From Alphaproteobacteria bacterium (GTDB taxonomy: Bacteria; Pseudomonadota; Alphaproteobacteria; CALKHQ01), in the NCBI GenBank assembly GCA_041396705.1, contig JAWKYB010000003.1:28985-92984 (forward strand): a stretch of DNA of 64,000 nucleotides, in the 5' to 3' direction. Each line of letters starts with the position of its first letter. Position 1 is the first letter of the stretch. Of this stretch, positions 2 through 27,457 are shown one piece after another. The notes below the pieces were generated by a model. That model ran no database searches, was not told where the DNA came from, and worked only from the letters and a program-made list of their open reading frames with translations. Made by a program: the position numbers and the translations under genes.

Positions 2-3000
2 GACAACGACGACGACACCATCTCGACGGGCGGCGGCGACGTCACCATCCTGGCCAACGTGCTCACCTTCGCGCAGAGCAACACGCTCAACCCCGGCGAG
101 ATCGTGATCAATGCCGGCAGCGGCAAGGTGCAGTTCGACCGGGTCGACCCGGGCGAGTTCAGCCTGGGCGACGACAACGGCGGCACCCATCTGAGCCAGG
201 CGGAGATCCGCGCGATCCGCGCCGGTGTGCTGGTGGTCGGCGAGGGCGGCGGCGACCAGATCGCCAACCACGACGTGCAGGTCAACCTGATCAACGTCGC
301 CAACGTCAACACGAACCTTAGTAGTGCCATCAGCGGCCAGGTCCGTCTGTACGCGCTGGAGGGCAACAACGGCGACGTCGAGTTCAGCGGCGCCAACACT
401 TTCGTTTCGCTGGCGGCGTTTGCCGACGACAACGTGCTGCTGCTTGACGATGGCATTATCAGCATCACCGGCGGCGTCGGCGCGATCGCCGCACTGGCGG
501 CCGGCGACAACATCGAACTGCGCGCACGCACCTTGGTCACCACGAATGGCGGGGCGGTATCGCTGGGCGCCGGCACCAACGAGTCGACCGACACGGTGCT
601 GCTCGACGGCGACGTCACCACCAACGGCGGCCGGTTCTCGTCTGTGAGCAGGGACTTCATCATCGACGACGACGGCGACACGCTCTCGACCGCCGGTGGC
701 AAGGTCGAGATCCAGACCGACAGTATCGACATCGACAGCAACAACGCCGCGGTGGCGGCGATCGACGCCGGCAACGGCTCGGTCTACTTCTATCGTACCA
801 CGCCGGGCACGGTCGGCCTGGGCCAGGCGGCCGGCCAGTTCCAGCTGACCCAGGGCGAGATCGACCAGATCAACGCCCACGACCTGACCATCGGCGACCC
901 GGACAACGGCATCGTCGGCGACGACCTCAACGGCCACAGCAACCAGATCACCGACATCGCGCTGCTGAACGTCGACTTCACCGACAACGGTGCCAACGAC
1001 CAGGGCATCTCGACGCTGGTGCGGCTGTTCGCGCTGCGCGCGCCGGAGAGCGCCGACATCACGATGACGGGCAACATCATCGTGCCGCAGCTGCGCGCCC
1101 AGGCGAACGATCAGGTCATCGTCAACGCCTCGGGCAACCTCAATCCGGCCCTGCTCAGCGAACTGGGCACGATCCACCTGATCGCCCAGGCCGGCGCCAC
1201 CCAGCCGGGGCTGACGATCAACGGCGCGATCACGGCGGCGACCAACTTCCACGCCGACTCGCAGCAGGTCAGCCTCGACGCCAACATTATCGCCCCGGGC
1301 GGCATCACCGGCAGCGCCCAGCTGGTCACCGTGGTCGGCGCGACCAACGGCGCGCAGATCAACGACGCGCTCGGCATGATCACGACCAGCGCGACACCGG
1401 GCTCGCCGGCGCATGTCAACGTCGGCGACGGCATCTACAACGAAGCCGTGGTGGTGACCAAGAACAACGTGGTCCTGACCGGCGGCCTCGGCGCGATCGT
1501 GCAGCCGGCCAGCCCCGGCTTCACCATCAACGCCACCGGCGTCACCATCGACGGCTTCAGCTATTCCGGCACCGGCGGCGATTCAGCCATTCTGCTCACC
1601 GGAGCGGCGGACGACGTGATCATCCGCAACGGTGCCATCACCGGGACCTCCGGCGCGGCCGCCGCCGGGATCGAAGTCGACGTCACGGTGACAGCAGCGC
1701 TCGACCTGACTGTCGACAACGTGACGATGACCGGCGTTAGCGGTTTCGGGATCAGGATCGACCCGGCGCTGAATGGCGCCAACATTGCGATCACCGGCAG
1801 CACGGTCGCCGGGGCGGCCGACGGCATCCGCTTCGCCAACATCACCGACTCGACGGTGTCGATCGGCGGCCTGCTGCTCGGCGACGGCAACAGCATCACT
1901 GGCGGCGGCACCGGCATCGCCACCGGCAGCATCAGTGGCGGCAGCTTCGTCGTCGCCGGCAACAGCTTGGTGCGCGGCTCCTCGGGCTTTGTCTTCGGCG
2001 CGCTGTCGAACAACGCGCTGGTGGCCATCGTGAACAACAACGAGATCCGCGGGACGGTCGTCGATGGCATTGGCATTCTGCAGGTCACCGACAGCACGGT
2101 GGCCATCGCCGGCAACGCCGGCATCTTCGGCAACGACGACGGCATCTTCGTCAGCAACGCGATCGCCAACTCCAGCTTCACCGTTGGCAGCACGAATGTG
2201 ACGATCGGCGGCACGCCGACGGCCTTCGTCGGCAATGGCACCATCCAGGGCCAGAACGACGGCTTCGACATCGACAGGATCGACAACAGCGTATTCAGGG
2301 TGGCCGACAACACCCTGATCCGCGGCGTCAACGGTGATGGCTTCGAGTTCGACAACCTGATCCAGAACGGCGCGAGCATCGAGATCGTCGGCAACGACGA
2401 GGTTCGCGGCGGCACGCGTGCCATCCATTTCGAGCAGGCGATCACCGACAGCAGCGTCACCATTGCCGGCAACACCACGATGCTGGGCGACGCCAACGAT
2501 GGCATCCGCTTCAGCGGCACGCTGACCGGCGACACCGTGCTGATCGGCGGCTTGGCGGGGTCCGACGCCAACAGCATCCGCGGCGCCCAGGGCGGCATCT
2601 TCGCCGGCAACATCGCCGGCGGCAGCTTCCTCGTCATCGGTAACACCCTGGTCCGCGGCGACACCCAGGAGGGCATCCTGACCGGCGTGCTCTCCGCCGG
2701 CCTGACGTTCGGCATCGCCGGCAATTCCGAGATTCGCGGCGGAATCGACGCCATCGGCATCGGTCAGGTGGTCGGCAGCAGCACGGTGGCGATCGCGGAC
2801 AACTTCCTGATCGAGGGCGAAAGCGGCGACGGCGTGTTCGTCTCGACCGACATCACGGATTCCGTGTTCCGGGTCGGGTCCGCCACCCTCACGGTCGGGG
2901 GCATTCCGACACTGTTCGGCGGCAACGGGACGATCCGCGGACACGAGAACGCCTTCGACATCGACCAGATCGTCAACAGCACGTTCGCGATTACCAACAA

Positions 3001-4942
3001 CGCGCTGGTCCAGGGCGTGACGCAGGAAGCGATCCAGTTCGACAACACGATCGGCGGCGGCGCGAACATCGAGGTCCGGTCGAACACCACGGTCCACGGC
3101 GCCACCGACGGCATCGCCTTCCAGCAGACGGTGACCGACAGCACCGTCACGATTGCCGGCAACGTGATCGCCGGCGACAGCGAGAACGGCATCCGCTTTG
3201 CCGCAGCGCTGACCGGCGACACCGTGCTGATCGGCGGCCTCGGCGCGGGCGATGCCAATAACATCGCTGGCGGCAAGGTCGGCCTCGTCACGGGCAACAT
3301 CGACGGGGGCAGCTTCGTCGTCGCCGGCAACGCGCTGATCAAGGGCACGCTGTTCTCCGGCATCCAGATCGGGGCGCTCAGCAACGGCCTGCTCTTCGGC
3401 ATCGTCGGCAACACCGAGATCCGCGGCGTCGGCCTCGACGGCATCGACGTGCTGCAGGTCAACGGCAGCACGGTCGCCATCGCCGGCAACGACGGGATCT
3501 TCGGCGACGCCGACGACGGCATCTTCATCGGCAATGGAGTCTTCGACTCCACATTCATCGTCGGCACCGCGACGGTGGACGTCGCCGGAACGCCAACCGT
3601 CTTCGGCGGCAACGGCCAGATCGTCGCCAGGAACGACGGCATGGACATCGATCGGATCGACAACAGCACGTTCCGCATCGCCGACAACACGCTGATCCGC
3701 GGCACGGCCGGCGAGGGTCTGGAATTCGACAACACGATCCAGAACGGCGCGGTCGTCGAGGTAGCGGGCAATGTCGACATCCTTGGCGCGACGAGCGGCA
3801 TCGCGTTCCAGGCCAGCATCACCGGTGGCAGCGTGCTGATCGACCGGAACGGGACGGCCGACCAGAACGGGGCGCCCTATGACGGCACCGCACCGGTGGA
3901 CCTGGCAACCTTCGTGCCGACCGGCTCGATTGCCGGCGCCAGCGGCGCGGCCGTGTCGTTCTCCGACATCGCCGGCGATGCGGCGGTGACGGTTTCGCGC
4001 AACATCCTGACCGGCAGCCAGATCGGGGTCCTGTTCGGCACCGTAAGCTCAACCGGTACCACCGCGGTGCACAACAACTTCGTGCTGAACAACCTGTTCG
4101 ACGGCCTGCGCTTCGAAGGCAACGTGACCGGACGGGTCGAGGTGTTCCAGAACTTCATCGCCGACAACATCGATGACGGTATTGAGATCTCCGTCGGCGC
4201 CGATGTCGGCGCCGGCAACCTCGTGATCCAGCAGAACTTCCTGCCCGGCGCCGGTTTCCTCAACGGCAACGGCGGCTTTGCGGTCAAGCACGGCGGCACC
4301 GGCACCATCGACATCGAAGGCAACTGGTGGGGCTCGATCGCGGCCGCCGACATCGCCACCGTGCTGGACAACGTGCCGCTGCCGGCGCTGGTGGTGGCGA
4401 CCGGTGACGATACCAACGTGCCGGGCGTGCTCGGCGTGACCGGGCTGGACCCGTTCGCTTTCCAGAACGCGGTGCTGGTCGGGCCGTTCGTGCCTGGCGG
4501 CGGCGAAGTGCTGGGCTTCCTGGCCCAGGCGCTGCTGGTCGGTGTCCTGGAGCAGTCGTCAGGCGAGGCGACCCCGGGCGACCGCGTCGCCGGCCGGGCC
4601 GGTCCGGATGCCGGCAACGTCTTCACCAACGTGTTCGGCGAGGCCTACAGCCTGTTCGGTGAGGGCAGCCTGGCCGACCTGGCGCCGGCGGCGGGCGGCG
4701 AGGCCTGCACGCTGAGCCCGGTCGAGGGCGGCGTGTCGCTGGGTTGCGGCGCCGGCGGCGGTGGCGGCGGCACCGGCGAGGGCGGCCTGCCGAACCTGGA
4801 GCCGGCCGCGGGCGGTGCGCCGGCAATCGACCCGGGCCTGAACCTGCAGGACCTGCTGAACATGTGGCTGTTCAACTTCGGCACGCCGCTTGACGGCCCG
4901 GTCGCCGGGCTGGACGGGGCGGCGGCGGAGGAGGGCGCCTAA
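2..4942 (+). CDS. Giant secreted-type parallel beta-helix (PbH1/NosD-like) repeat protein, 5' partial. The reading frame is open from the window start; the ORF track begins at 59.
   Basis: 1627+ aa are made almost entirely of about 22-aa beta-helix turns (motifs GNxxIRG, DSTVxIAGN, GIxFxN). The C-terminus is Gly-rich. No stop occurs upstream in frame, so the N-terminus lies outside the window. Confidence 0.75.
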   Translation, partial: DNDDDTISTGGGDVTILANVLTFAQSNTLNPGEIVINAGSGKVQFDRVDPGEFSLGDDNGGTHLSQAEIRAIRAGVLVVGEGGGDQIANHDVQVNLINVANVNTNLSSAISGQVRLYALEGNNGDVEFSGANTFVSLAAFADDNVLLLDDGIISITGGVGAIAALAAGDNIELRARTLVTTNGGAVSLGAGTNESTDTVLLDGDVTTNGGRFSSVSRDFIIDDDGDTLSTAGGKVEIQTDSIDIDSNNAAVAAIDAGNGSVYFYRTTPGTVGLGQAAGQFQLTQGEIDQINAHDLTIGDPDNGIVGDDLNGHSNQITDIALLNVDFTDNGANDQGISTLVRLFALRAPESADITMTGNIIVPQLRAQANDQVIVNASGNLNPALLSELGTIHLIAQAGATQPGLTINGAITAATNFHADSQQVSLDANIIAPGGITGSAQLVTVVGATNGAQINDALGMITTSATPGSPAHVNVGDGIYNEAVVVTKNNVVLTGGLGAIVQPASPGFTINATGVTIDGFSYSGTGGDSAILLTGAADDVIIRNGAITGTSGAAAAGIEVDVTVTAALDLTVDNVTMTGVSGFGIRIDPALNGANIAITGSTVAGAADGIRFANITDSTVSIGGLLLGDGNSITGGGTGIATGSISGGSFVVAGNSLVRGSSGFVFGALSNNALVAIVNNNEIRGTVVDGIGILQVTDSTVAIAGNAGIFGNDDGIFVSNAIANSSFTVGSTNVTIGGTPTAFVGNGTIQGQNDGFDIDRIDNSVFRVADNTLIRGVNGDGFEFDNLIQNGASIEIVGNDEVRGGTRAIHFEQAITDSSVTIAGNTTMLGDANDGIRFSGTLTGDTVLIGGLAGSDANSIRGAQGGIFAGNIAGGSFLVIGNTLVRGDTQEGILTGVLSAGLTFGIAGNSEIRGGIDAIGIGQVVGSSTVAIADNFLIEGESGDGVFVSTDITDSVFRVGSATLTVGGIPTLFGGNGTIRGHENAFDIDQIVNSTFAITNNALVQGVTQEAIQFDNTIGGGANIEVRSNTTVHGATDGIAFQQTVTDSTVTIAGNVIAGDSENGIRFAAALTGDTVLIGGLGAGDANNIAGGKVGLVTGNIDGGSFVVAGNALIKGTLFSGIQIGALSNGLLFGIVGNTEIRGVGLDGIDVLQVNGSTVAIAGNDGIFGDADDGIFIGNGVFDSTFIVGTATVDVAGTPTVFGGNGQIVARNDGMDIDRIDNSTFRIADNTLIRGTAGEGLEFDNTIQNGAVVEVAGNVDILGATSGIAFQASITGGSVLIDRNGTADQNGAPYDGTAPVDLATFVPTGSIAGASGAAVSFSDIAGDAAVTVSRNILTGSQIGVLFGTVSSTGTTAVHNNFVLNNLFDGLRFEGNVTGRVEVFQNFIADNIDDGIEISVGADVGAGNLVIQQNFLPGAGFLNGNGGFAVKHGGTGTIDIEGNWWGSIAAADIATVLDNVPLPALVVATGDDTNVPGVLGVTGLDPFAFQNAVLVGPFVPGGGEVLGFLAQALLVGVLEQSSGEATPGDRVAGRAGPDAGNVFTNVFGEAYSLFGEGSLADLAPAAGGEACTLSPVEGGVSLGCGAGGGGGGTGEGGLPNLEPAAGGAPAIDPGLNLQDLLNMWLFNFGTPLDGPVAGLDGAAAEEGA
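1780..3850 (+). repeat. Three tandem super-repeats of about 690 bp (230 aa) inside the beta-helix gene.
   Basis: Near-identical blocks recur at about 1.8, 2.45 and 3.13 kb, for example TDSTVTIAGN..GDANDGIRFSGTLTGDTVLIGGL and FDIDRIDNS.FR.ADNTLIRG. Confidence 0.7.
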
Positions 4943-5478: not shown

Positions 5479-6551
5479 GCCGCACCCGCAGCAGGCAGGG
5501 CCGCGGCAGCCCCGCGATGGCGCACGGCATAGACGTCGTCGTGCAGGCGCAGGCCGGCGCGGACCTCGCGGGAAACATGCGGGCTCGCCGCCAGCCAGGA
5601 GATCGCCTCGGCCAGTGCGGCGCGGGCTGGGTGCGGCCGGTAGCCGAGCGCCCGGGCGCGGGCGTCGTCGTACCAGTACCAGCGGCCAACCATGGCGGCC
5701 TGGTCGCGGGTGGTCAGCGGCCGGCGCCGGCGCGCCCGGGCGACCGCCTCCTCGGTCGCGGCGGCGAGATAGGCGGCGCCGTGGGTGAGGGAAAGCCGGG
5801 GCGGCGCCACGCCGGCCAGCTCGGCGACGAGGCCATGGAGCTGCGGCCATGCCAGGTTCTCGCCGCCGAGGAGATAGGCGGCACCGGGCGTCCCGCGCAG
5901 TGCCAGCAGCCGGTGGCCGGCCGCGACATCGGCCGCCGCGGCGATATTGCAGCCGCCCGGCCAGGTCAGCCGCAGCGGGTCGGCCAGATAGGCGACGACC
6001 AGGCCGTTGCTGGGGCCGAGCGCGGTGCCGTGCGGCCCCACCGTCACGGTCGGGCAGGCCGCGACCAGATCGAGGCCGAGCGCCTCGGCCTGAGCGAAGG
6101 CCCGGGCGTGCTGGCGCACCTTGGCGCGGACATAGGCGTTGGCGTCGCTGTCCTGGGCAAGCGCCGCGGTCTCGTCGCGTGCCGCCAGCCGGTCGCTGTG
6201 GCCGTAGACCACGGACGACGAGGTCAGCACCACGCGGCCGACGCCAGCCCGGCGCGCGGCCGCCAGCACGCTGTCGGTGGCGGCCAGCGCTTCGTCGAGC
6301 TCGCGTTCGCGGCGACGGTCGTAGGTGAAGTGCATCGCGGTGTGGAACAACACGTCGACGCCGGCGAGGGTGGCGGCGAGGGCGTCCGCGTCCGCCAGCG
6401 CCAGCCGGCGGATGTCGACGTCGACGCCGCCAAGCGCGGCAAGGTCGCTGCTCGGTCGGGCAATGGCCAGCACATCGTCGCCGGCGGCCAGCAGGCAGCG
6501 CACCAGGTTGGCGCCGATCAGCCCGCCGGCGCCGGTGACCGCCGCCTTCAT
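5475..6551 (-). CDS. NAD-dependent epimerase/dehydratase family protein (HpnA-like sugar epimerase type), 358 aa.
   Basis: MKAAVTGAGGLIGANLVRCLL is an N-terminal Rossmann GxxGxxG. The SDR-extended fold is present. The gene is translationally coupled on both sides. Confidence 0.8.
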   Translation of the reverse strand: MKAAVTGAGGLIGANLVRCLLAAGDDVLAIARPSSDLAALGGVDVDIRRLALADADALAATLAGVDVLFHTAMHFTYDRRRERELDEALAATDSVLAAARRAGVGRVVLTSSSVVYGHSDRLAARDETAALAQDSDANAYVRAKVRQHARAFAQAEALGLDLVAACPTVTVGPHGTALGPSNGLVVAYLADPLRLTWPGGCNIAAAADVAAGHRLLALRGTPGAAYLLGGENLAWPQLHGLVAELAGVAPPRLSLTHGAAYLAAATEEAVARARRRRPLTTRDQAAMVGRWYWYDDARARALGYRPHPARAALAEAISWLAASPHVSREVRAGLRLHDDVYAVRHRGAAAALPAAGAA

Positions 6552-8722
6552 GTCAACGCCTCCGCCAGCCGGGCCGGCGCCGCGATGCCGTCGCGGGCGA
6601 CAGCGGCGGCAAGGTCGCTGATGAACGCACCGAACGCCGCGACGGCAGCCTGCCATTGCGCCGCTGCGCCGGCCGTGTCCGCCTCCGCGTTCGCCCCGGC
6701 GGGACCGACGAAATGGCGGAATCCATCGTCGTCGATGCGGTCGGGCTCGCCGGCACCGCCCGGCATCGCCAACCCGCCGCGCCGGGCCAGCACGCCCTCC
6801 AGCTTTTCGCCGAGCGCGACCGCGAGCCGTTCGATCGCCTCGGCCGGCAGCGCCTCGGTGTCGCGCGGATGCGCCGGTTCGTGCCAGTCGCGGCCGATGT
6901 GCACCGCGCGGCCTTCGACCAGCGCCTCGAAATTGGCCAGCGTGCGATCGAAGAAGGTCTTGTAGGCGTGGGTGACCAGCGCCGCCTTCAACGCCGGGGC
7001 GAGGTCCAGGTTCACCGCCTGCCAGAACGGCGGCAGCGTGAACAGCTGCCGGCCGGCGATGCGGACGGCGGTGCCGCGGGCGCTGCGGGTGAAGGTGACC
7101 ACGCCGTCGTCGTGGACGGCGGAGCCGTTCGCACTGGCGATGGTCTTCCAGTACATGCGATGGCGATCGGCGCCATAGTCGCAGATCTCGATCTTGCCGA
7201 CGTCGATCGGCTTGCCCTGGTACAGGACCAGGTCGTTGGGCTGCGGCAGGTAGAGATTGCGTTCGACCTGGCGCAGCACGCGCCCCTGGCGGTCGCGCGC
7301 GGTCGGCACCACCACGCCGCCGACATAGTCGTTCATGAACTGGATGGTGCGGGCGACGTCGACCCGGGCGACGAACAGGTCGAACGGAATCGGCAGGTCG
7401 CGCGCGTAGCTGAAAACGGTGGCACCGTCGACCTCGCGCCAGGTCAGGTCCTCCGCCGCCGGCGCGACGCCGTCGAGCAGGGCGGCCAACCGGTCCAGCT
7501 CCGGCCGGATCGCGGCATAGTCGGCGGCGCGGTAGACGGCAGGATCGAAGCCGAGCGGCACGACCCGGCGGCGGATCGCATCCTTGTCGAACAGCACCCG
7601 CCAGCCGTCGAGCCACTGGCCGGCGGCGCTGATGGCGGCATTGGCCAGCACCAGCAGCGACAGCGCCAGCGGGTCGTCGTCGGTGCCGGCGAAGAACCGG
7701 CTGACATGCGGGTTGACCCGGGCGTCGACCACGTTCTTCAAGGGAAACAGCCCGGTATCGAGGGTCTGCAGCCAGGGCGCGACCAGCCGGTCGCCGACCG
7801 GCAGCGCGGCGCGGGCGCGGGCCGCGGCCGTCAGCGCCGGCGGCACGTTGCGCCAGCCCGGCCATGGCGCCAGGCTGCCGTCGACGGTGTAGGGCTCCGG
7901 CAGGCCGATGCCGGCGAACACGCGGTCGGCAAGCGGCGAGCCGTGCGGGTCGAGGCCCATCTTCAGCGCGCCGGCATAGTCGGCGAGGGGCGCGCTGGTG
8001 CTGGCGATCACACAACCGGCGGCGATCGGCTGCGGCGCGCGGGCGCCGCCGCTGCCGTGGGCGGCGGTCACCGCATCGATCACGGCGAAGTGCACCGGCG
8101 TCGCGCGCAGCAGGTCGCAGACCGCGTCACCCGCGTCCATCCGGCGCCGGTAGTAGTGGTCCTTGTCGGCCAACGGTAGCGCGCCGAGCAGGGCGTCGAG
8201 GCACAGTGCATAGGTCTCGCGCTCGTCGGTGCGGGCGCCGGCGACGACGATGCGGAAGCCGGCGTCCAGCCAGCGCCGGGCAAGCGGGCTGCCCCGCAGC
8301 ACGCCGCCGGAAGGGAACGGCGCATCGATCAGGTCCTCGGCCAGGTCGACGACGTCGTAGGCGCGGCCCTGCGGCGTGACATAGCGATAGCCGAGCAGGT
8401 CGGCGCGCACCGCGACGTCGCGGTTCTCGGCCCAGCCGTCGGCGGAATCGGCGGTGCCGCAGAGGGCGACGTCGGTGTAGCCCCGATCGTGCAGCAGGTC
8501 GACCAGGCCCTCGACCAGCGCCGGGTCGGCCGCTGCCGGCGATCCTGCCGCGAAGCCGCCCATGTCGGCGAGGATGAGCACCGGCAAGGCCGCCGGTTCG
8601 ACGGTGCCGTTGCCGCAAACGTCGGCCAGCGCCCGCCACAGTCCCGCCCGCGCGACCGCATCGGCCAGCAGGTCGGACCCCGCCCGGGCCGGGTCCGCGA
8701 CGACGGCGACGGTGGCCGTCAC
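6548..8722 (-). CDS. Large two-domain hypothetical protein, 724 aa. The N-terminal region is DUF362-like.
   Basis: This is a long ORF with a GTG start preceded by AAGGA. It is co-operonic with the epimerase. The domain assignment is tentative. Confidence 0.5.
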   Translation of the reverse strand: MTATVAVVADPARAGSDLLADAVARAGLWRALADVCGNGTVEPAALPVLILADMGGFAAGSPAAADPALVEGLVDLLHDRGYTDVALCGTADSADGWAENRDVAVRADLLGYRYVTPQGRAYDVVDLAEDLIDAPFPSGGVLRGSPLARRWLDAGFRIVVAGARTDERETYALCLDALLGALPLADKDHYYRRRMDAGDAVCDLLRATPVHFAVIDAVTAAHGSGGARAPQPIAAGCVIASTSAPLADYAGALKMGLDPHGSPLADRVFAGIGLPEPYTVDGSLAPWPGWRNVPPALTAAARARAALPVGDRLVAPWLQTLDTGLFPLKNVVDARVNPHVSRFFAGTDDDPLALSLLVLANAAISAAGQWLDGWRVLFDKDAIRRRVVPLGFDPAVYRAADYAAIRPELDRLAALLDGVAPAAEDLTWREVDGATVFSYARDLPIPFDLFVARVDVARTIQFMNDYVGGVVVPTARDRQGRVLRQVERNLYLPQPNDLVLYQGKPIDVGKIEICDYGADRHRMYWKTIASANGSAVHDDGVVTFTRSARGTAVRIAGRQLFTLPPFWQAVNLDLAPALKAALVTHAYKTFFDRTLANFEALVEGRAVHIGRDWHEPAHPRDTEALPAEAIERLAVALGEKLEGVLARRGGLAMPGGAGEPDRIDDDGFRHFVGPAGANAEADTAGAAAQWQAAVAAFGAFISDLAAAVARDGIAAPARLAEALT

Positions 8723-8725
8723 CGT

Positions 8726-9010
8726 TCAGTCCTTGGCGGCCTTCTCGGCCGGCTTGTCGTCGAGGCCGAAGGCGGAGGCGGCCCAGCGCGCATAGTCGAC
8801 CCAGGCCTGCAGCAGGCCCGCTGTCGCCGCCACCGAGCCGCGCACGCCCAGCGCATAGATGTCGCGGGCCAGCGCCTCGGGCGAGGTCTCGCCACGGCCG
8901 AACGCCTGCAACGCGCGGGCATAGGCCTCCAGCGCCTCGCCGCCACGCACGCTGTACGTGCGCAGGCCGTCGCGGCCCACCGTCTTCAGGTCGTCCCAGG
9001 ATGCTGCCAT
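8726..9010 (-). CDS. Small hypothetical protein, 94 aa, first gene of the operon.
   Basis: A strong RBS (GGAGGTG plus 5 nt plus ATG) precedes the start. The stop lies 3 nt before the next GTG start. Confidence 0.5.
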   Translation of the reverse strand: MAASWDDLKTVGRDGLRTYSVRGGEALEAYARALQAFGRGETSPEALARDIYALGVRGSVAATAGLLQAWVDYARWAASAFGLDDKPAEKAAKD

Positions 9011-9086
9011 CGCCCCACCTCCATGTGCCGGTTGCGGGTGCAGGACGGCAAGGTAGCGGGCCGCGGCCGGCTTTCCAACCGGCGCG

Positions 9087-9434
9087 TCAGCGCGCCGCGA
9101 CCACCATCACCTCGACCAGCAGCGTGTCGACCGCCAGCTTCGCCTCGGTGCAGGCCCGCGCCGGCGTGTTGCCGGGTGACACCCAGGCGTCCCACACCGA
9201 GTTCATCGCCGCGAAATCGGCGATGTTGCGCAGCCAGACCTGGGCGCTGAGCAGCTTGGTCTTGTCGGTGCCGGCGGCGGCCAGCAGCCGGTCGACCTTG
9301 GCCAGCACCTGGCGGGTCTGGGTGACCACGTCGGCATTCTGGTCGTCGGCGACCTGGCCGGCGAGATAGACGGTGTCGCCGTGGACGACGCACTGGCTCA
9401 TGCGCGGGCCGACGTCGGATCGCTGGATGGTCAT
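9087..9434 (-). CDS. ridA: RidA/YjgF/TdcF-family reactive-intermediate (imine/enamine) deaminase, 115 aa.
   Basis: MTIQRSDVGPRMSQCVVHGDTVYLAGQVA...VEVMVVAA matches the family. The ATG overlaps the stop of the upstream oxidase as ATGA. Confidence 0.8.
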   Translation of the reverse strand: MTIQRSDVGPRMSQCVVHGDTVYLAGQVADDQNADVVTQTRQVLAKVDRLLAAAGTDKTKLLSAQVWLRNIADFAAMNSVWDAWVSPGNTPARACTEAKLAVDTLLVEVMVVAAR

Positions 9435-10568
9435 GGGTGTTCCTTCCCTTTGGTGGCGGTGATAGTGCGTGTCGCGGCGACCGTCGCGGGGTCGAGCGCC
9501 GGGATCGGATTCGGCCGGCCGGCAAGCAGCGCGGCGACGTAGTCGGCCATGCCGGGCGCCGACTGGATGCCGTAGCCGCCCTGGCCGGCGAGCCAGAAGA
9601 AGCCGTCGACCGCGCCGTCCCAGCCGACCACCGGGTTGCCGTCGCCGACGAAGCTGCGCAGGCCGGCCCACTTGTGCAGCACGCGCCGGACGGCGATGTC
9701 GAGCGCATGCTCCAGCCGGTCGACCGCGACCGCCACGTCGATCTCGTCGGGCTGGGCGTCGCAGGGCTCGACCGGGGTCTGGTCGGCGGGCGAGACCAGC
9801 AGGTCGCCGACCTCGGCCCGGAAGTAGTAGGTTTCGGCCACGTCCGAGACCAGCGGCCAACGGCGCACGTCGTGGCCCGCGGGCGCCGGCACGATGACGG
9901 CGGTGCGGCGCTTCGGCTGCAGGCCGCGCGGGCGGGCGCCGGCCAGTGCGGCGACCCGGTCGGCCCAGGCGCCGGCGGCGTCGACCACGATGTCGGCGGC
10001 GAAATCGCCGGCGGGCGTCTCGATCCGCCAGCCATCGGCCCGCCGCGTCAGCGCGCGCACCCGGGCATCGGTGACGATCCGGCCGCCGAGGGCGCGGAAG
10101 CCGCGCAGATAGCCCTGGTGGATCGCCGCCACGTCCATCGCCATGGCGTCGTTCTCCATCGCCGCGCGGGTCAGCGCGGCGGGGCGCAGCAGCGGCACCA
10201 TGGCGCGCGCCGCCGCGACGCCGATCGCGCTGAGCATCGGATGGCGCGAAAGCTCGGCCTCCAGCAGCGCCTCGTCGCCGGGGGCGGCGACCAGCATCAC
10301 CGGCCGCGGCGTCAGCAGCGGCACCTCGGCGAAGCCCGGCGGCGGCGCCATGAAGAAGGCGCGGCTGGCGCCGGTCAGGGCATTGATCGGCTGCGGCCCG
10401 TAGGACTCCAGGTACATCGCCGCCGACCGACCGGTGGAGTGGTAGCCCGGCTGTGCTTCCGCCTCGACGATCGTGATCGCCGCCGTCGCCGCGGTCGGCC
10501 GCGATGCGCCACGCCGCGGACGCACCGGCGATGCCGCCGCCGACGACGGCGATCCGGGGGTCAGCCAT
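9431..10568 (-). CDS. FAD-dependent oxidoreductase (D-amino-acid oxidase/DAO family) with an apparent 1-nt frameshift near codon 25-30.
   Basis: Frame A from ATG 10568 gives MADPRIAVVGGGIAGASAAWRIAAD, a Rossmann FAD motif. The rest of the protein (ITIVEAEAQPGYHSTGRSAAMY...) is in another frame from about 10490. See findings. Confidence 0.7.
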
Positions 10569-21344: not shown

Positions 21345-22196
21345 ATGCGACAGTTAGTCGTTCTGGAGCCGAGCAGGCTCGTCCGCGAGGGTATCTCGCA
21401 TCTGTTGGCCGAACACGGCTATGCGGTCGTCGAACAGACCGCCGTCAACGATCCGGACCAGGATCCGGTATCCGACGACAGCATCGATCTCGTCCTGAGC
21501 GAGCTGCCCGGTCCGCGCTACGACATGACCGAGTGGCTGAAGCGAATCGCGGCCTTCTATCCGAAGGCCAGGATCGTGCTGTTGACCGGGCGCTGCGACG
21601 ATCCGGACACGTTGCGCGAGGCGCTGGCTTGCGGCGCCTTCGGCTATATCGACAAGGATCTGTCTGCCGACGCGGTATGCGCCACCATCGACGCGGTGCT
21701 GCACGGGCAGATCGTGTATCCGCGCGAGCTGCGCGACTGCCTGGTCGGCGACGGCCGGGCACGGGCAGGGCGGGCGGCGCCTGCGGTCCGCGTTGCGGTC
21801 GGCGAATCGGTGCCGGCCGTGCGCATCGCGGCGGTCGGCAACGTCGTCGACCTGCGCCAGCCGAACGGCACGGCCGTGCATGCCGGTCCTGTGGCAGCCG
21901 AGGCGGCGGCACCGCGGGTGCCGGCGCCGTCGAAACCCGCGTTGGCAGGCGCGGGCAGGTTGCAGCAGTTCGGGCTGTCGCACCGCGAGGACGAGATCCT
22001 GCGTCATGTGGCGCGCGGCCACGCCAACAAGATCATCGCAAACGAGCTGAACATCAGCGAAGCGACGGTGAAGTCCCATCTGAAGAGCCTGCTGCGTAAG
22101 CTCAACTTCACCAACCGCACCCAGGCCGCGATCTGGGCGGTGAGCCAATATGGCAGCGCCGCCGGCGGCATGGATCCCGGTGCGCGCACCGCGTGA
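21345..22196 (+). CDS. LuxR/GerE-family transcriptional regulator with an atypical (aspartate-less) receiver domain.
   Basis: The N-terminus has receiver-like topology but VVLEPS replaces the acidic DD pocket, and DLVLSELPGP lacks the phospho-acceptor Asp. The C-terminal HTH is LSHREDEILRHVARGHANKIIANELNISEATVKSHLKSLLRKLNFTNRTQAAIWA. Confidence 0.75.
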   Translation: MRQLVVLEPSRLVREGISHLLAEHGYAVVEQTAVNDPDQDPVSDDSIDLVLSELPGPRYDMTEWLKRIAAFYPKARIVLLTGRCDDPDTLREALACGAFGYIDKDLSADAVCATIDAVLHGQIVYPRELRDCLVGDGRARAGRAAPAVRVAVGESVPAVRIAAVGNVVDLRQPNGTAVHAGPVAAEAAAPRVPAPSKPALAGAGRLQQFGLSHREDEILRHVARGHANKIIANELNISEATVKSHLKSLLRKLNFTNRTQAAIWAVSQYGSAAGGMDPGARTA

Positions 22197-22345
22197 ACCG
22201 GTCCGGGCCCAGCACCCGGGCGCACGAATCCGAACCGGCCGGACGGGGCCCTTACTGGTTGCCGTCCGGCCGGCGGAGGACGCGGGACATGCAGCGATCC
22301 CGCGTGTGGCGTCGGCCGGCGCCGTGCGCCGGCCTGCGGTCCGGG

Positions 22346-22855
22346 CTAGCGCGACTCGTCGGCCGGGCCGATCTGCAGCACCGCGGCCTGCTGCACCCAG
22401 GCGTTGACCGGCGAGGGCTGGTGGCCGCGCAGGATCCAGCCCTGTGCCGGCACCGGCAGGCCGGAGGCCATCGCGGTCCATGCGTCGATCGAGGCGGCCG
22501 GGTTGGGAATCATGCCGACGCCGATCGAGCCGGTTTCCGCCAGCGCATGGTAGTTCCAGCCGCGCAGGCTGCGGCCGCCGGCGCCGAGAATGGTCGAGGT
22601 GCGCGAGCGGACCACGGCCAGGCCGTTGGCGCCGCGCTGCACGTCGACCAGCGCGCCGCTGGAATCGCGCAGGAAGAACTCCGGCCGGTTGCCGGTCAGC
22701 TGCTCGTCGATGATGGCCTCGCGGTAGCCCGCGCTCATCCCGACCGACCCGCCGCCGCGGCTGAAGTTGAACGGCTCGTTGAACAGCTGGGCCTGCGCGG
22801 GCGCGACCAGCGCGCCGGCCGCCAATGCGATGCCGGCGACAAGGACCTTGAGCAT
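22346..22855 (-). CDS. Secreted protein, 169 aa, with signal peptide MLKVLVAGIALAAGALVAPAQA and a CsgF-like mature N-terminus (paralog A).
   Basis: Strong RBS: AAAGGAG, 7 nt, ATG. The mature protein starts QLFNEPFNFSRGGG. It has curlin-like SxxxxxQxGxxNxxA segments. Confidence 0.6.
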   Translation of the reverse strand: MLKVLVAGIALAAGALVAPAQAQLFNEPFNFSRGGGSVGMSAGYREAIIDEQLTGNRPEFFLRDSSGALVDVQRGANGLAVVRSRTSTILGAGGRSLRGWNYHALAETGSIGVGMIPNPAASIDAWTAMASGLPVPAQGWILRGHQPSPVNAWVQQAAVLQIGPADESR

Positions 22856-23452
22856 GGGGGTACTCCTTTGGTGTGCAATCAGCTCCGGGCTTTGCCGGTT
22901 CCCCCATAGGTATTCAACCAAAGGGGGAGGTTCAAGGAAAATGCAGATCGCAGACCGGCAGGTAATGCGTTCAAAGTGTTAGTGTTTTTATTCTACCGCG
23001 CCACCGGCGAATCCGCGAAGCGCTGAGGAATCAAGGCCCGCCGCCTGATGTGGACGCGCTGCGGCCGAGCGGATTCTCTCACATGAAAAATTCTTACCGC
23101 GGCCGCGGCCCTGCAGCCGGGCGCACCGCGACGGACCCGGATTCGCCGGCCGCGGTGCCCGACCGGCTCCTCGGCCCGTCGGAGGGAGTCATCCCTTGGC
23201 ATGAATGCGGCGATCAGCCTTGAGGGCTAGTCAGCAGCGAGGTCATCTTTTGTAGTACAGATCCGGGTGCATGCCGGATCATCCCTTGCGATTAGTACGT
23301 TATCGAAATTGTACAAACTGTCATGATTGCTATGATAGAAAACGAACACAAGAAAACGGCGAATTTTCCTGGTGTTCCCTGGGTCTTGGTGGGAATTCGC
23401 TCTCACACTGCATGTCGAATATCACGCGACTCAATGCGTGAGGAGAGGTCCG
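22856..23452. promoter_or_regulatory. 597 bp divergent intergenic region between the CsgF-like gene (leftward) and the CsgG-family gene (rightward), with strongly AT-rich patches.
   Basis: Positions 22960-23000 and 23220-23400 are AT-rich in a roughly 70% GC background. Likely promoters and regulator-binding sites. Confidence 0.45.
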
Positions 23453-24280
23453 ATGCGATTTGGATTGAAGATTGTTGGTCTCGTTGGCCTGGGCCTGGTC
23501 GTTGCCGGCTGCGCGCCGCGGGCGATCTATGGCGATAACGGCGTTCAGCCGCAGTACAGCTTTCCGGTGACCAACAACGACACGCCCTACAGCGCCTGCC
23601 TGCGCAACCTGGCGGCGCTGCCCGGCAACAACCTGCCGGTCATCGCGGTCGGCGAGGTCTCCGACAAGACCGGCCAGATCAACTACGAGGAAAACGGCAA
23701 TGCGCTGAGCCAGGGCGCGGCCGAGATGATGACCAGCGCGCTGTTCCTGAGCGGCAAGGCCAATCTGGTCGAGCGCTTCGACCTGCGCGTGCCGCTGGCC
23801 GAGGTGTCGATGGCGGAGCAGGGCCTGCTCAATCGCGGCATCGACAGCTATCGCGGCCAGATCCCGGGCAGCGACTTCATCATCCTGGGGGCGCTGACCG
23901 AGCTCAACTACAACATCACCAGTGACGGTGCCGGCCTGTGGATCATGGGCATGGGCGCCGGTGCAAGGACAGTCGTAATCAACGTGGCGTTGGATGCGCG
24001 GGTGGTCAACTCGCGCAACTTCACCGTTGTTTACGCGAAGTCACTTCAGAAGCAGGTATATGGCTTCGAAGTGGAGGCCAATGTGTTCCGTTTCTTTGGC
24101 AACACCTTGGTCGAGTTTGACGCCGGTTCGGTGCGGAACGAACCGCTCCAGATCGCCGTCCGCTCCGTCGTCGAGATGTTCGTGTACGGCATGATGACGG
24201 AGGCGTTCGGGCTGCCCACCACGCCTGAGTGCGAGCTGGTGTCGCTCGAATATCCGTACACGTTGCAAACGGAGGACTAA
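23453..24280 (+). CDS. CsgG/HfaB-family outer-membrane lipoprotein secretion channel, 275 aa.
   Basis: The lipobox is LVVAGC. Blocks align with E. coli CsgG: VGEVSDKTGQ / VYNIQDETGQ, GFEVEANVFRF / SYEVQAGVFRF and SVRNEPLQIAVRSVVE / YTSNEPVMLCLMSAIE. The RBS is AGGAGAGG. Confidence 0.85.
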   Translation: MRFGLKIVGLVGLGLVVAGCAPRAIYGDNGVQPQYSFPVTNNDTPYSACLRNLAALPGNNLPVIAVGEVSDKTGQINYEENGNALSQGAAEMMTSALFLSGKANLVERFDLRVPLAEVSMAEQGLLNRGIDSYRGQIPGSDFIILGALTELNYNITSDGAGLWIMGMGAGARTVVINVALDARVVNSRNFTVVYAKSLQKQVYGFEVEANVFRFFGNTLVEFDAGSVRNEPLQIAVRSVVEMFVYGMMTEAFGLPTTPECELVSLEYPYTLQTED

Positions 24281-24284
24281 GTCA

Positions 24285-25034
24285 ATGCAGCGTAAGCATC
24301 TGTTGGCCGCGGCGAGCGTGATCACGCTCGCCACGGGCCTGGCGGCGCCGTCCGCCCAGGCTTTCGATAGGGTCTGGTGGGACTGGAACCTCGATGTCGA
24401 CACGAAGGTCGACGTCAGGGTCGACGTCGACATCAACGTCGATCCCAAGGGCGCGGTGATCTCCGAGACCGACCAGTACTTCAAGGGCTCGCAGGAAGCG
24501 ACCGCGAAGATCGGCGACGTCTATGTCGATCCGAAGGGCTATCACCTGGACGGTGCCACCGACCTCGGCGAGGTCAACAACGTGGCGGCCGCGCTCGGCA
24601 ACTCGAACGCGATCACCTCGGACTTCTCCGTGCAGTCCGACGTCGACCAGGATGCCATCGGCACCGCCTGGTACGGCGCCGACTTCGAGGCGACCGCGAA
24701 AGTCTATGACATCGACAATGCGTCGGTCAGCAACGTCGCACAGGCGATCGCGAACTCGAACTCGATCACCGTCGACCCGCTGCGCGAGCATGGCTGGTAC
24801 CACAGCAGCTCCGACGACGCGCTGATCATCAGCAATGTCGAGCAGTCGGCCTATGCCAACGGCAGCGCCTACGCCTCGGTCTACGACGTCACCATCCGTG
24901 GCTTCGGCGACCTCGGCTCCGGTGACAACGAGCTGAACCGGGCTCTGGTCACCAACTCGGCGATCGCCGCCGGCAACGTGAACAACATCACCCTGGTGAA
25001 CGGCGCCATCGCCTTCCCCGATCAGGACAACTGA
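24285..25034 (+). CDS. Secreted curlin-like repeat protein, 249 aa. It is the candidate amyloid or cargo subunit for the CsgG-family channel.
   Basis: The signal peptide ends AQA. Four or more degenerate repeats SNVAQAIANSNSIT, NNVAAALGNSNAIT, TNSAIAAGNVNNIT and SNVEQSAYANGSAY resemble the NxAxxxQ curlin half-repeat. The gene starts 5 nt after the CsgG stop. Confidence 0.55.
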   Translation: MQRKHLLAAASVITLATGLAAPSAQAFDRVWWDWNLDVDTKVDVRVDVDINVDPKGAVISETDQYFKGSQEATAKIGDVYVDPKGYHLDGATDLGEVNNVAAALGNSNAITSDFSVQSDVDQDAIGTAWYGADFEATAKVYDIDNASVSNVAQAIANSNSITVDPLREHGWYHSSSDDALIISNVEQSAYANGSAYASVYDVTIRGFGDLGSGDNELNRALVTNSAIAAGNVNNITLVNGAIAFPDQDN

Positions 25035-25147
25035 TCGCAGGGCTGTTGCTCGCAACGCAAGGGCAGGGGCGGCGTTCGCGCCGCCCCCGTCCGCCAAGAC
25101 AGGGAATCGCGCTCCCGACCGCGCCGACGGCGCAGGGAGCGAACGCA

Positions 25148-25582
25148 ATGGGGGTAATGATGACTGCACATGCGAAGACGCGGGGCCTGACCGCCGTGAC
25201 GGCGGTTGCCGTTCTCGCCGCGAGCGCCCTGTGGGCCGCGCCGGCCTCGGCCCAGATGTTCCGCGAGCCGTTCTCGTTCGGCGCGCGCAGCTCGGCCAGC
25301 CTGGCGATCTTCATGCGTCAGCGCGACGACGCGCTCAGCGCGTCCTCGTCCGGCGTCGGGATCGGCAGCGGCACCTCGCAGGCGCTGGTCTGCGGCAGCA
25401 GCGGCGGCACCACCGCGTCGACTGCGGCCGGCAACATCACCTGCGTGCTCGCCGGCAACAACACCAACGTCGTGGTGAACAGCCACCAGGACTCGACCGG
25501 CGACCAGAATGCCGATGCCAACACGCACCAGACGGCGGCGGAGACCATCGGCGACATCCTGAACGGCGAGCCGAACGGCTAG
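25148..25582 (+). CDS. Secreted protein, 144 aa, with a CsgF-like mature N-terminus (paralog B).
   Basis: RBS: GGGAG, 8 nt, ATG. The signal peptide ends ASA. The mature protein starts QMFREPFSFGARSS and is Gly/Ser/Thr-rich with 2 Cys. Confidence 0.55.
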   Translation: MGVMMTAHAKTRGLTAVTAVAVLAASALWAAPASAQMFREPFSFGARSSASLAIFMRQRDDALSASSSGVGIGSGTSQALVCGSSGGTTASTAAGNITCVLAGNNTNVVVNSHQDSTGDQNADANTHQTAAETIGDILNGEPNG

Positions 25583-25777
25583 CGGTCGTACGCTCGCGGC
25601 CCGCGGCTCGGCGCCGCAGGCAGCATTCGGGTCAGTCCGGCGTCGCGCACGGCACCGCAGGGTGCGGGGGCAGATGGGCGGCAGCGCGGCAATCGGCGCT
25701 GCCGGCGACGACCGGCCGGGCCCGGTACGCAAAGCCGAACCGGGATCGCATGCCCGGAGCACCGGAGGAGGAACCAG

Positions 25778-26173
25778 ATGCGCCAGATCGTCATCCTGTC
25801 CATGCTGCCGCTGCTGGCGGGCTGCGGCCTGCCGCCGGCGGTCGCCATCGCGTCCTATGCGGTCGACGGCGTGCTGCTGGCCGCAACCGGCAAGACCACC
25901 AAGGACCATGCGCTGTCGGTCGCCATGCAGCAGGACTGCAACATGCTTCACGTCATCGCCGGCGAGTCGATCTGCCAGGACTACGAGCCGACCCAGCGTG
26001 CGGCGATGGCGATGGCGTCGAGCGGGCCGGGCGAAGAGGCGCTGACCACCACGTCCGACGGGCGGATCATCCGGGTGGCGGCGCAGCCGACGCCGTCGCT
26101 CGACGGCGGCCTGATCGCGGCGGCGCCGCGTGCCGGCCAGGCTGCCGCCGGCGATGCGGCCGCCGCGCACTAG
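25778..26173 (+). CDS. Small lipoprotein, 131 aa, last gene of the cluster.
   Basis: RBS: GGAGGAGG, 6 nt, ATG. The lipobox is LLAGC. Two further Cys are present. Confidence 0.55.
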   Translation: MRQIVILSMLPLLAGCGLPPAVAIASYAVDGVLLAATGKTTKDHALSVAMQQDCNMLHVIAGESICQDYEPTQRAAMAMASSGPGEEALTTTSDGRIIRVAAQPTPSLDGGLIAAAPRAGQAAAGDAAAAH

Positions 26174-26211
26174 GCGCAGGCAAAGCGAACCGAGCTGGCC
26201 GGGCGGCAAGT

Positions 26212-26586
26212 ATGGAACACAACACGAGAGCGCGGCCGGGACCGTCGGGCGAGGAGCCCCGCCGGTCGCCGGCGCCGGAGAGAGGGGCAATGGGCGCGGG
26301 CGAGGGATCCCGGGCCGAGACGGGGCGCCACCGGCGCTTCACGCCGGAAGAGATCGTCAAGATGCTGCGCGAGGCCGATGTCCGGATCAGCCACGGCGAG
26401 AGGGTCGGCGCCATCTGCGCCGACTTCGGCGTCTCGGAGCAGAGCTACTACCGCTGGCGCCGTCGCTATGGCGGCCTGCGCATCGACCAGGCCCGCCGGA
26501 TGCGGCAGCTGGAGCGGGAGAATACGAGGCTGCGCAAGCTCGTCGCGCTGCTGACTGCCGACCGCGAGCAGCACGGCGGCGCCTGA
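26212..26586 (+). mobile_element. IS3-family (IS407-like) transposase OrfA remnant. There is no OrfB or DDE domain downstream.
   Basis: RRFTPEEIVKMLREADVRISHGERVGAICADFGVSEQSYYRWRRRYGGL...LERENTRLRKLVALL shows the HTH plus leucine zipper typical of IS3 OrfA. The ORF stops and unrelated genes follow. Confidence 0.7.
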
Positions 26587-26614: not shown

Positions 26615-27457
26615 TCAGGACAGGGTGATGACCACCCGCCTGTTCGCCGCGTTGCGCACGCCATCGCCGGTGGCCTCGGCCGGCTCGCGCTCGCCGACGG
26701 CATCCATCTGGATCCGGCCGGCGTCGACGCCACGGGCGACCATCAGGTCGCGCACCGCCTCGGCCCGAGCCCGCGACAGCAGCTGGTTGTATTCCGGCGC
26801 GCCGGCGGTGTCGGTATAGCCGACCACCGCGATCGGCAGCGTCGGGTCGGCCAGCGCGGCGACGACGGCCTGCTCGACCACGGCGCGGCCGGCGGTGGTC
26901 AGCGCGGCGCTGTCGAAATCGAACAGGATCACGAAATTCTGCGCGTCCGCCGCGCCCGGGCCGGTCTGCGGCCGGCCGCCTGCCGCCATCAGGCATTCGT
27001 AGAAGCCGTCGCGGCAGACCATGATACGGGAATCGTCCTGGTCCTCTTCGGCTTCGGCGATCCAGCAGTCGTAAAGCGCCTGGCAATGCGCCACCAGCTC
27101 GGGCTGGAAGTCGCGGCCGCCGCTGTACAGGATCGCGACCAACTGGGCCCGCGCCTCGATCAGTTCCTGGACGACCGACTCCGGGACGGCACGCGCGGCG
27201 ACCTCGTCGGGCAGCACCTGCTGTCCGTAAGACGCCGCCAGGCCCTTCAGCGCGAAATAGTCGGCGTCGGTCCAGTCGCCGCGGCCGGCCTCGAACACCG
27301 CCAGGTCCTGATACTCGTCCATCAGCGCCACGTTGTGGCGATGGCCGACTCGCGGGGTCTCCTGCAGCGTCTCGATATTCCAGGCGGTGGTGCAGCCCGA
27401 AGCCAGCAACACCGCCGCGATGGCAAGCACCAGCGGTTGCCACGATCGGATGGACAT
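26615..27457 (-). CDS. OmpA-family lipoprotein with a peptidoglycan-binding OmpA_C domain.
   Basis: The lipobox is LLASGC. The C-terminus reads FDFDSAAL...VVGYTDTAGAPEYNQLLSRARAEAVRDLMVARGV...NRRVVITL. Confidence 0.8.
   Translation of the reverse strand: MSIRSWQPLVLAIAAVLLASGCTTAWNIETLQETPRVGHRHNVALMDEYQDLAVFEAGRGDWTDADYFALKGLAASYGQQVLPDEVAARAVPESVVQELIEARAQLVAILYSGGRDFQPELVAHCQALYDCWIAEAEEDQDDSRIMVCRDGFYECLMAAGGRPQTGPGAADAQNFVILFDFDSAALTTAGRAVVEQAVVAALADPTLPIAVVGYTDTAGAPEYNQLLSRARAEAVRDLMVARGVDAGRIQMDAVGEREPAEATGDGVRNAANRRVVITLS

Follow-up and report, generated by a model that had tools for sequence, protein, structure and literature searches.

A gene cluster organized around a CsgG-family lipoprotein was identified in a 64,000-nucleotide stretch of DNA from an alphaproteobacterium (GTDB lineage CALKHQ01; assembly GCA_041396705.1, contig JAWKYB010000003.1, positions 28,985 to 92,984 of the forward strand), here called the window. 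The reading that we favour, with some reserve, is that this cluster constitutes a self-contained and vertically conserved secretion and assembly module, which would stand next to curli (csg) and the Caulobacterales holdfast anchor (hfaABD) as a third branch. By analogy with these systems, the cluster probably exports three unnamed proteins that give rise to a surface adhesive or anchoring structure. To our knowledge, studies of CsgG-family systems have been confined to two, namely curli and the holdfast anchor of Caulobacter, and library searches found no paper describing the present cluster. An initial annotation of the window had considered that the cluster matched neither csgDEFG/csgBAC nor hfaABD and represented an undescribed variant of CsgG-dependent systems; this call was right, as indicated by the profile tests and gene orders presented below.

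The cluster comprises five genes. A LuxR-type regulator (21345-22196, plus strand) is followed by the gene of a secreted protein of 169 amino acids (aa), here named DivP (22346-22855, minus strand), which is separated from the remaining genes by a divergent intergenic region of 597 bp (22856-23452), the presumed promoter region. Then come, on the plus strand, an HfaB-like/CsgG-family lipoprotein considered to be the putative channel (23453-24280), a secreted, acidic, Cys-free repeat protein named Rep (24285-25034), and a small secreted Gly/Ser/Asn-rich protein bearing a Cys pair, here referred to as HfaA-like (25160-25582). All open reading frames (ORFs) listed in the initial annotation were recovered at their coordinates, and the starts of the regulator, DivP, channel and Rep ORFs coincided with the NCBI calls MEZ5666507-510 (283, 169, 275 and 249 aa, respectively), which are among the proteins MEZ5666507-514 of a metagenome-assembled genome labelled 'Alphaproteobacteria bacterium'; the start proposed for the HfaA-like gene, at 25148, did not hold, the NCBI call beginning at 25160 (140 aa).

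Conservation of the Gene Cluster

A total of 78 loci was obtained from a scan of one genome per species, in which an alignment of channel homologues served as the query, and the Rep, HfaA-like and DivP proteins encoded in these loci were counted by means of family hidden Markov models (HMMs). Rep was found in 75/78 loci, and HfaA-like, also present in 75/78, was the third gene of the operon in all of these. The strict order channel, Rep, HfaA-like was observed in 73 of the 74 loci having all three genes, the exception being one close relative (L001) that carries a tandem duplicate, so that the synteny in other Alphaproteobacteria raised by the initial annotation was confirmed. DivP was present in 66/78 loci, being upstream and divergent in 62 of them, and a homologue of the LuxR-type regulator adjoined the cluster in 68/78. 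In the loci lacking Rep or HfaA-like (L032, L057 and L065), the contigs stopped within ~1.4 kb downstream of the channel gene, and in a further locus (L073) a Rep homologue was present together with an HfaA-like candidate that the profile had missed. The five-gene arrangement is thus recurrent in dozens of genomes, far beyond chance.

The carriers included Thalassospira, Pelagibius, Algihabitans, Tistlia, Inquilinus, Ferrovibrio, Parvibaculum, Tianweitania, Rhizomicrobium, Neomegalonema, Thermohalobaculum and Micavibrio, in addition to Sphingopyxis/Sphingobium contigs, a Caulobacterales metagenome-assembled genome (MAG; L078) and many other alphaproteobacterial MAGs. Micavibrio is filed by NCBI under Bdellovibrionota and was taken here as an alphaproteobacterium. 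Four cluster-bearing contigs (L065, L074, L009 and L046) were recorded as MAGs of Planctomycetaceae, Mycobacteriaceae or Pseudobdellovibrionaceae, and the contigs under the first two names are probably mis-binned.

The genes surrounding the cluster differed among genomes. In the window, the cluster has an ABC transporter for amino acids on its upstream side and one for phosphonate on its downstream side, while genes for NAD synthesis, sulfatases and the like were found around it in Thalassospira australica and Parvibaculum. Since these flanking genes are variable and of the housekeeping kind, the module looks self-sufficient. In the three genomes inspected (the window, Thalassospira and Parvibaculum), no polysaccharide genes, of the hfs type or other, were found up to ~7-10 kb from the cluster.

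The Putative Channel and Its Family Placement

The assignment of the 23453-24280 product to the CsgG family, made in the initial annotation, proved solid. This protein matched Pfam CsgG (PF03783) at 1.5e-30, and its residues 49-249 were aligned to solved Escherichia coli CsgG structures (PDB) at 2.7e-12. Its best-scoring NCBIfam family was HfaB (NF037935, an equivalog model with a cut-off of 300 bits), which was matched over the full length at 4e-50 and 170 bits. The CsgG equivalog (PRK15184) was matched at 45 bits (9e-12) against a cut-off of 505, indicating that the channel is no CsgG orthologue. In the same way, HfaB scores were uniform, from 150 to 175 bits, in nine channels (the window and eight others, including that of the Caulobacterales MAG), and amounted to 139 bits in the Vibrio form and 195 bits in a form from a Variovorax plasmid. 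From these uniform scores below the cut-off, the channels look like sister subfamilies of HfaB rather than HfaB orthologues.

The lipobox of the protein reads VVAG↓C, and the lipidation site C20, together with C49 and C260, was invariant in 22 homologues. In the alignment with CsgG, Y51 was matched and the constriction residues N55 and F56 fell in a gap, the constriction loop of the channel being DKTGQINYEENGNALSQG. A total of 701 channel homologues was obtained, with identities of 58-86% among the best 120 of the 701.

Tandem second copies of the channel gene were observed in the two closest relatives, at 1042-2592 and 4658-6205 in L001, in which the Rep gene was duplicated together with it, and at 2907-3911 and 5572-6789 in L002. 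Another HfaB-like variant, of 471 aa and with a C-terminal extension, was found in the Variovorax paradoxus plasmid CP063168 (L084, 4370-10717), where it is preceded by a small N/S/T/G-rich protein containing 'AWQF' and followed by an 'S-layer family protein' of >1456 aa. This gene order resembles hfaA-hfaB-hfaD, and an EAL-domain gene lies upstream.

The Secreted Partner Proteins

The three partner proteins belong to no named family, as verified in 44 DivP, 45 HfaA-like and 52 Rep members, with the exception of one weak HfaA match described below. All three are preceded by signal peptides, and in each family the conserved motif begins exactly at the predicted mature N-terminus.

In Rep, the signal peptide ends in AxA and is directly followed by FDxVxWxW, whose F, W and W were invariant in 52/52 members. 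The family presents three copies of SxATAVGNNxSI with variable inserts between them. In the window protein, residues 99, 150 and 224 are the sites of the motif N.A.A.[GA]N.N.IT (NVAAALGNSNAIT, NVAQAIANSNSIT and NSAIAAGNVNNIT), which substantiates the degenerate Asn/Ala repeats noticed in the initial annotation; with a looser form of the motif, at least two matches were seen in 0/20,000 shuffles. The window Rep is a short form (~220-260 aa), as found on Vibrio plasmids, most members having 330-380 aa and some as many as 584. The mature protein has an isoelectric point of 4.05, contains 26% N/Q/S/T and is free of Cys. When 1.84 billion cluster representatives were searched with the Rep profile, 267 relatives were obtained at E up to 1e-3; among ten that were sampled, three were named, always as 'hypothetical protein', and seven were nameless. 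No NCBIfam or Pfam family was matched by any of the 52 members. A structure model of Rep was built from a 9-row alignment and was of low confidence; its structural matches were SufD (6.4), a polygalacturonase (4.8), the FapC amyloid (4.6), RsaA (4.3), UpaB (4.1) and a CsgA (3.6). Although it proves nothing, this model fits a solenoid-like repeat fold, possibly a beta-solenoid-like one.

The HfaA-like protein has a signal peptide ending in ASA↓Q, followed by Q[MQ]xxxP[WYF]xF..NRASxAxxMxQxE, and, after a G/S linker, the segment LVCGG..SxATANSxCIILNNSxG..GQDSxGDQ, with two Cys in 39/45 members. It matched the C-terminal half of the NCBIfam HfaA model (NF037934) at 22.8 bits and E 9e-5, below the cut-off of 50, and this match was restricted to the window protein among the 45 family members. 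The initial annotation had stated that no HfaA was present; in fact, this is the only partner protein with an Hfa signal, a weak one, and it is encoded downstream of the channel gene. A profile search with the HfaA-like alignment returned 11 nameless proteins and no named HfaA. The structure model of the protein had a predicted local distance difference test score (pLDDT) of 46 and was unusable. A repeat unit common to Rep and HfaA-like, as in CsgA/CsgB, was also considered and rejected, since hhalign gave a probability of 0.3% between the C-terminal domain of the latter and mature Rep. The Rep HMM scored 5e-5 on the Vibrio HfaA-like protein, a value obtained in a tiny database.

The DivP signal peptide ends in AQA↓Q, and the mature N-terminus reads Q[LM][NS]N[KR]P[FY]xF, then GGVGMSxAGRQAI. 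Its C-terminal half presents two W-T..V motifs, and 0-1 Cys are found across the family. No Pfam or NCBIfam family was matched by any of the 44 members. The motif DGGVG, known from HfaE, was found in 9/44 members, in the N-terminal region (…PDGGVGMS…). PHPASQV and CNERSLLR, the two remaining HfaE motifs, were absent from the DivP family and from the whole window.

A feature common to the three families is an aromatic-x-aromatic pair conserved at mature residues 6-9. This N-terminal motif is a candidate recognition element. In profile-profile comparisons, the N-termini of DivP and HfaA-like were aligned at E 1e-8 when signal peptides were included and, without signal peptides, over 13 columns at E 1.8e-4 with a probability of 48%. 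We take these short conserved segments to be comparable, in idea, to the N-terminus of CsgF or to the N22 of CsgA.

The Regulator and the Divergent Intergenic Region

The 21345-22196 product, an orphan transcription factor of the response-regulator type, matched Pfam GerE at 1.6e-19 and Response_reg at 3e-9. Its receiver is degenerate, the acidic pair being absent, and the phospho-acceptor position is occupied by Glu53 in the window and by E (18), D (17), G (13), S (5) or N (3) among 59 linked homologues, so that many members cannot be phosphorylated by the usual route. Against NCBIfam CsgD, the regulator scored 62.7 bits in the helix-turn-helix (HTH) part only, the cut-off being 250. A CsgD-like action is suggested by its position alone. 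Two LuxR/GerE-type genes, instead of one, were observed upstream of the cluster in Thalassospira loci (L024-L026, L049 and L082, the latter at 7568-9714).

The intergenic region between DivP and the channel gene, described in the initial annotation as AT-rich, presented GC values of 0.57-0.64 against ~0.70 around it. Neither a match to the sigma-70 consensus nor an Rfam family was found in 22856-23452, and scans for Rfam families, promoters and terminators across 20.5-27.8 kb revealed nothing above background. A two-copy direct repeat with the core TCATCCCTTG is located in this region, at 23189-23209 and 23279-23299 (90 bp apart); it is a possible candidate site for the regulator and could also be due to chance.

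Proposed Mechanism and Alternative Explanations

According to the proposed mechanism, the HfaB-like lipoprotein would form a CsgG-type oligomeric channel in the outer membrane. Rep, HfaA-like and DivP, each with a classical AxA signal peptide, would reach the periplasm via Sec and would engage the channel by the aromatic-x-aromatic motif at mature residues 6-9. The clients would then be exported and assembled at the cell surface. The resulting structure would be beta-rich and possibly amyloid-like, with Rep as the main subunit of the polymer or adhesin and the HfaA-like Cys-pair protein as a minor, nucleating or anchoring subunit, while DivP could act as an adaptor or accessory protein or be a third cargo of the channel. 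Expression would be controlled by the LuxR-type regulator, in the position that CsgD has for curli, and the likely role of the whole would be surface adhesion, biofilm matrix formation or the anchoring of an exopolymer. Some observations weigh against this mechanism. The motif common to DivP and HfaA-like is short, which makes its significance modest, and that of Rep is only analogous, not being alignable with the other two. The regulator is linked to the cluster by adjacency only. Moreover, since DivP is missing in 12 loci, the regulator in 10, and both in plasmid copies, these two components may be dispensable.

It is also conceivable that the neighbours of the channel gene are not cargo, in which case the lipoprotein would have another envelope role, acting for example as a scaffold in the periplasm or as a pore related to polysaccharides, and the small secreted proteins would be periplasmic partners or unrelated envelope proteins. 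We regard this as improbable. In Caulobacter, deletion of hfaB was more severe than the triple deletion of hfaA, hfaD and hfaE, which pointed to a further function of HfaB (bioRxiv 10.1101/2022.07.20.500906) and would favour such an explanation. However, the tightness of the operon, with a few bases between channel and Rep genes, and the near-universal co-occurrence of the genes, plasmids included, argue for a joint function, and the partner proteins have compositions of the kind usually seen in subunits of exported fibres or adhesins. Another alternative, proposed in the initial annotation, is a divergent curli (type VIII) system, in which two CsgF-like adaptors would plug the channel by their N-termini and Rep would be a curlin-like amyloid subunit. 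This would account for the CsgG-family channel, for the short Asn/Ala/Gly-rich repeats of Rep and for the LuxR-type regulator adjoining the cluster as csgD does. In addition, DivP starts with QLFNEPFNFSRGGG and HfaA-like with QMFREPFSFGARS, both resembling by eye GTMTFQFRNPNFGG of CsgF (FxF..GG). The initial annotation had taken both for CsgF-motif proteins. The motifs are real and conserved in both families, but the kinship with CsgF did not stand: no window protein matched Pfam CsgF (PF10614) at E up to 1, nor did any of the 44 DivP and 45 HfaA-like members, and hhalign probabilities of both profiles against E. coli CsgF were <1%. The description of the 24285-25034 protein as curlin-like failed likewise, as Pfam Curlin_rpt (PF07012) was found in no window protein at E up to 1, in 0/52 Rep members and in none of the 45 HfaA-like members, and hhalign of the family profiles against E. 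coli CsgA and CsgB gave <=1%. CsgE and CsgC/CsgH had no Pfam match in any cluster protein, and the hhalign probabilities of the DivP profile were <1% with both CsgE and CsgC, so that the earlier statement that no CsgE is present was upheld. Together with the 45 bits of the channel against the CsgG equivalog and the deletion of N55 and F56, these comparisons make a curli system the least credible of the explanations and its membership largely refuted already. The visual likeness of QLFNEPFNFSRGGG to GTMTFQFRNPNFGG may be kept as a lead to a similar mode of action, and carries no evidence of homology.

The main rival to an independent module is the holdfast anchor itself. In this case, the genes would be rearranged orthologues of hfaB, hfaD and hfaA that tether a polar adhesive polysaccharide, of the holdfast type or like the unipolar polysaccharide (UPP), in bacteria other than Caulobacterales. 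The full-length match to HfaB, the weak match of the small protein to the C-terminal half of the HfaA model and the occurrence of the same cluster in a Caulobacterales MAG are consistent with it. The HfaB scores, however, remained far below the cut-off even in that MAG, and the HfaA match, itself below its cut-off, was limited to 1/45 members. The order of the genes also differs: in every one of the Caulobacterales analysed, hfaA-hfaB-hfaD is reported to be conserved (bioRxiv 10.1101/523142). Here, the channel gene comes first, followed by Rep and HfaA-like, in 73/74 loci. HfaE contains 10 Cys and the motifs PHPASQV, CNERSLLR and DGGVG (bioRxiv 10.1101/2022.07.20.500906), and no HfaE-like protein was found in the cluster, the window DivP being Cys-free and its family sharing with HfaE only DGGVG, in 9/44 members and at the opposite end of the protein. 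The absence of hfs-type genes from the surroundings inspected and the presence of the core on Vibrionaceae plasmids also speak against a holdfast anchor, which we consider unlikely, though less so than the other two alternatives. An independent module beside curli and hfaABD thus remains our preferred reading. A bolder version of it, which we put forward tentatively and hold to be doubtful, is that the cluster represents a third widespread type VIII-like branch, making a non-curlin, beta-solenoid-like fibre from three families without known relatives, with the N-terminal motif serving as the common docking or export signal for HfaB-type channels. If true, this would explain how Caulobacter HfaB recognizes its clients, and would mean that such a system spreads between classes on plasmids.

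Mobility and Neighbouring Genes

The initial annotation had suggested that the cluster was a horizontally acquired island with an insertion sequence (IS) remnant. This suggestion is not supported: the flanks are housekeeping transporters, the cluster occurs in several alphaproteobacterial orders, and G+C contents at third codon positions (GC3) overlap, being 0.82-0.91 in the cluster genes and 0.76-0.97, mostly 0.87-0.95, in the other called ORFs of the window. The supposed remnant is an orfA-like gene of the IS3 type (26212-26586; HTH_Tnp_1 at 2.5e-16) that L001 and L002 retain in the corresponding position, with aa identities of 68% and 59%, respectively, and it may therefore be a domesticated HTH gene rather than a decaying IS. 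Given the overlapping GC3 and the conservation of both this gene and the synteny, recent horizontal acquisition in this genome was rejected. Between the cluster and the orfA-like gene lies an extra lipoprotein (25778-26173; lipobox LLAG↓C, no family match), and beyond the latter an OmpA-family lipoprotein with a weak CpaD-like N-terminus at 3e-4 (26615-27457, minus strand). The extra lipoprotein and the orfA-like gene were common only to L001 and L002, and the OmpA-family gene only to L001; the confinement of both lipoprotein genes to the closest relatives places them outside the module.

Elsewhere, the three-gene core of channel, Rep and HfaA-like is mobile. It was found on five Vibrio alginolyticus plasmids and on pPGC22 of Photobacterium ganghwense, with 48.6% identity of the channel, a Rep of 222-243 aa recognized by its HMM at 1e-48 to 1e-57, and an HfaA-like protein recognized at 1e-12. 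In the V. alginolyticus plasmid NZ_CP082309 (L080), the core (5959-8288) directly adjoins the RepB and ParAB genes and is followed by an Hpt-domain protein, and in pPGC22 (L081) it is located at 6016-8029. These Vibrionaceae copies have neither DivP nor the regulator, and, since the core travels alone on plasmids, it is a functional unit.

An HTH_Tnp_1 gene was also seen just downstream of the cluster in a Parvibaculum locus (L083, 12529-16649), where it is followed by a phage-type integrase, HipA/HipB and a DDE transposase, as well as in L018 (8486-8788). The border of the cluster may thus recurrently adjoin mobile DNA. Near the edge of the window, an ORF of 1627 aa (59-4942, plus strand) had a genome-typical GC3 of 0.92 and was without a Pfam match at E up to 1e-5. 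Judging from its N-terminal sequence (NAGSGKVQF..., 'GDDNGG'), it may encode a giant protein of the surface or adhesin-like kind.

Comparison with Known Systems

These results indicate that the occurrence of HfaB-like channels accompanied by conserved clients of their own extends far outside Caulobacterales, all the client proteins being annotated as hypothetical. The cluster is carried by culturable marine and soil bacteria, such as Thalassospira, Pelagibius, Algihabitans, Parvibaculum and Inquilinus, as well as by plasmids of V. alginolyticus. It offers tractable systems in which client recognition could be approached via the conserved N-terminal motif, and three unnamed protein families to be defined. 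It is also a candidate determinant of adhesion or biofilm formation, plasmid-mobile in V. alginolyticus, an aquaculture pathogen.

Among the known systems, the functional amyloid system Fap of Pseudomonas (fapA-F) differs from the cluster in using the beta-barrel FapF instead of a CsgG-type lipoprotein. The two are unrelated in sequence, and the structural match is weak and generic. With curli of E. coli and Salmonella, the cluster shares a CsgG-family lipoprotein channel, at the superfamily level only, a proposed Sec-dependent repeat cargo rich in Asn, Gly and Ala, and a divergent organization with a LuxR-family regulator whose receiver is non-canonical. In contrast to curli, profile tests revealed neither curlin repeats nor homologues of CsgF, CsgE or CsgC/H, the channel is distant, with a shorter constriction loop devoid of N55 and F56, and the repeat motif is NxAxAxGNxNxIT.

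The closest comparison is provided by the holdfast anchor of Caulobacter crescentus and Hirschia baltica, which works in partnership with hfs genes for the holdfast polysaccharide and has its multimers at the cell pole. In Caulobacter, HfaB is needed for the surface localization of HfaA, HfaD and HfaE, which are multimers resistant to sodium dodecyl sulfate (SDS) (bioRxiv 10.1101/2022.07.20.500906; PMC6707917), and HfaA and HfaE are described as restricted to Caulobacterales (bioRxiv 10.1101/2022.07.20.500906). The cluster differs from this anchor in that its proteins fall below the HfaB and HfaA equivalog cut-offs, the gene encoding the HfaA-like protein comes last instead of first, and DivP and a linked LuxR-type regulator are added, without HfaE or adjacent hfs genes; it also extends to Rhodospirillales, Hyphomicrobiales (Parvibaculum and Tianweitania), Micavibrio, contigs of Sphingomonadales and plasmids of Vibrionaceae. 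Nevertheless, HfaB is the best family of the channel, and in both systems the gene of a CsgG-like lipoprotein forms an operon with those of a small and a medium-sized secreted protein, the larger of which is encoded directly after the channel gene, while the small one contains Cys, as HfaA does, and retains a weak HfaA signal. In this way, the cluster would probably be, as the holdfast anchor is, a machine for surface anchoring or adhesion.

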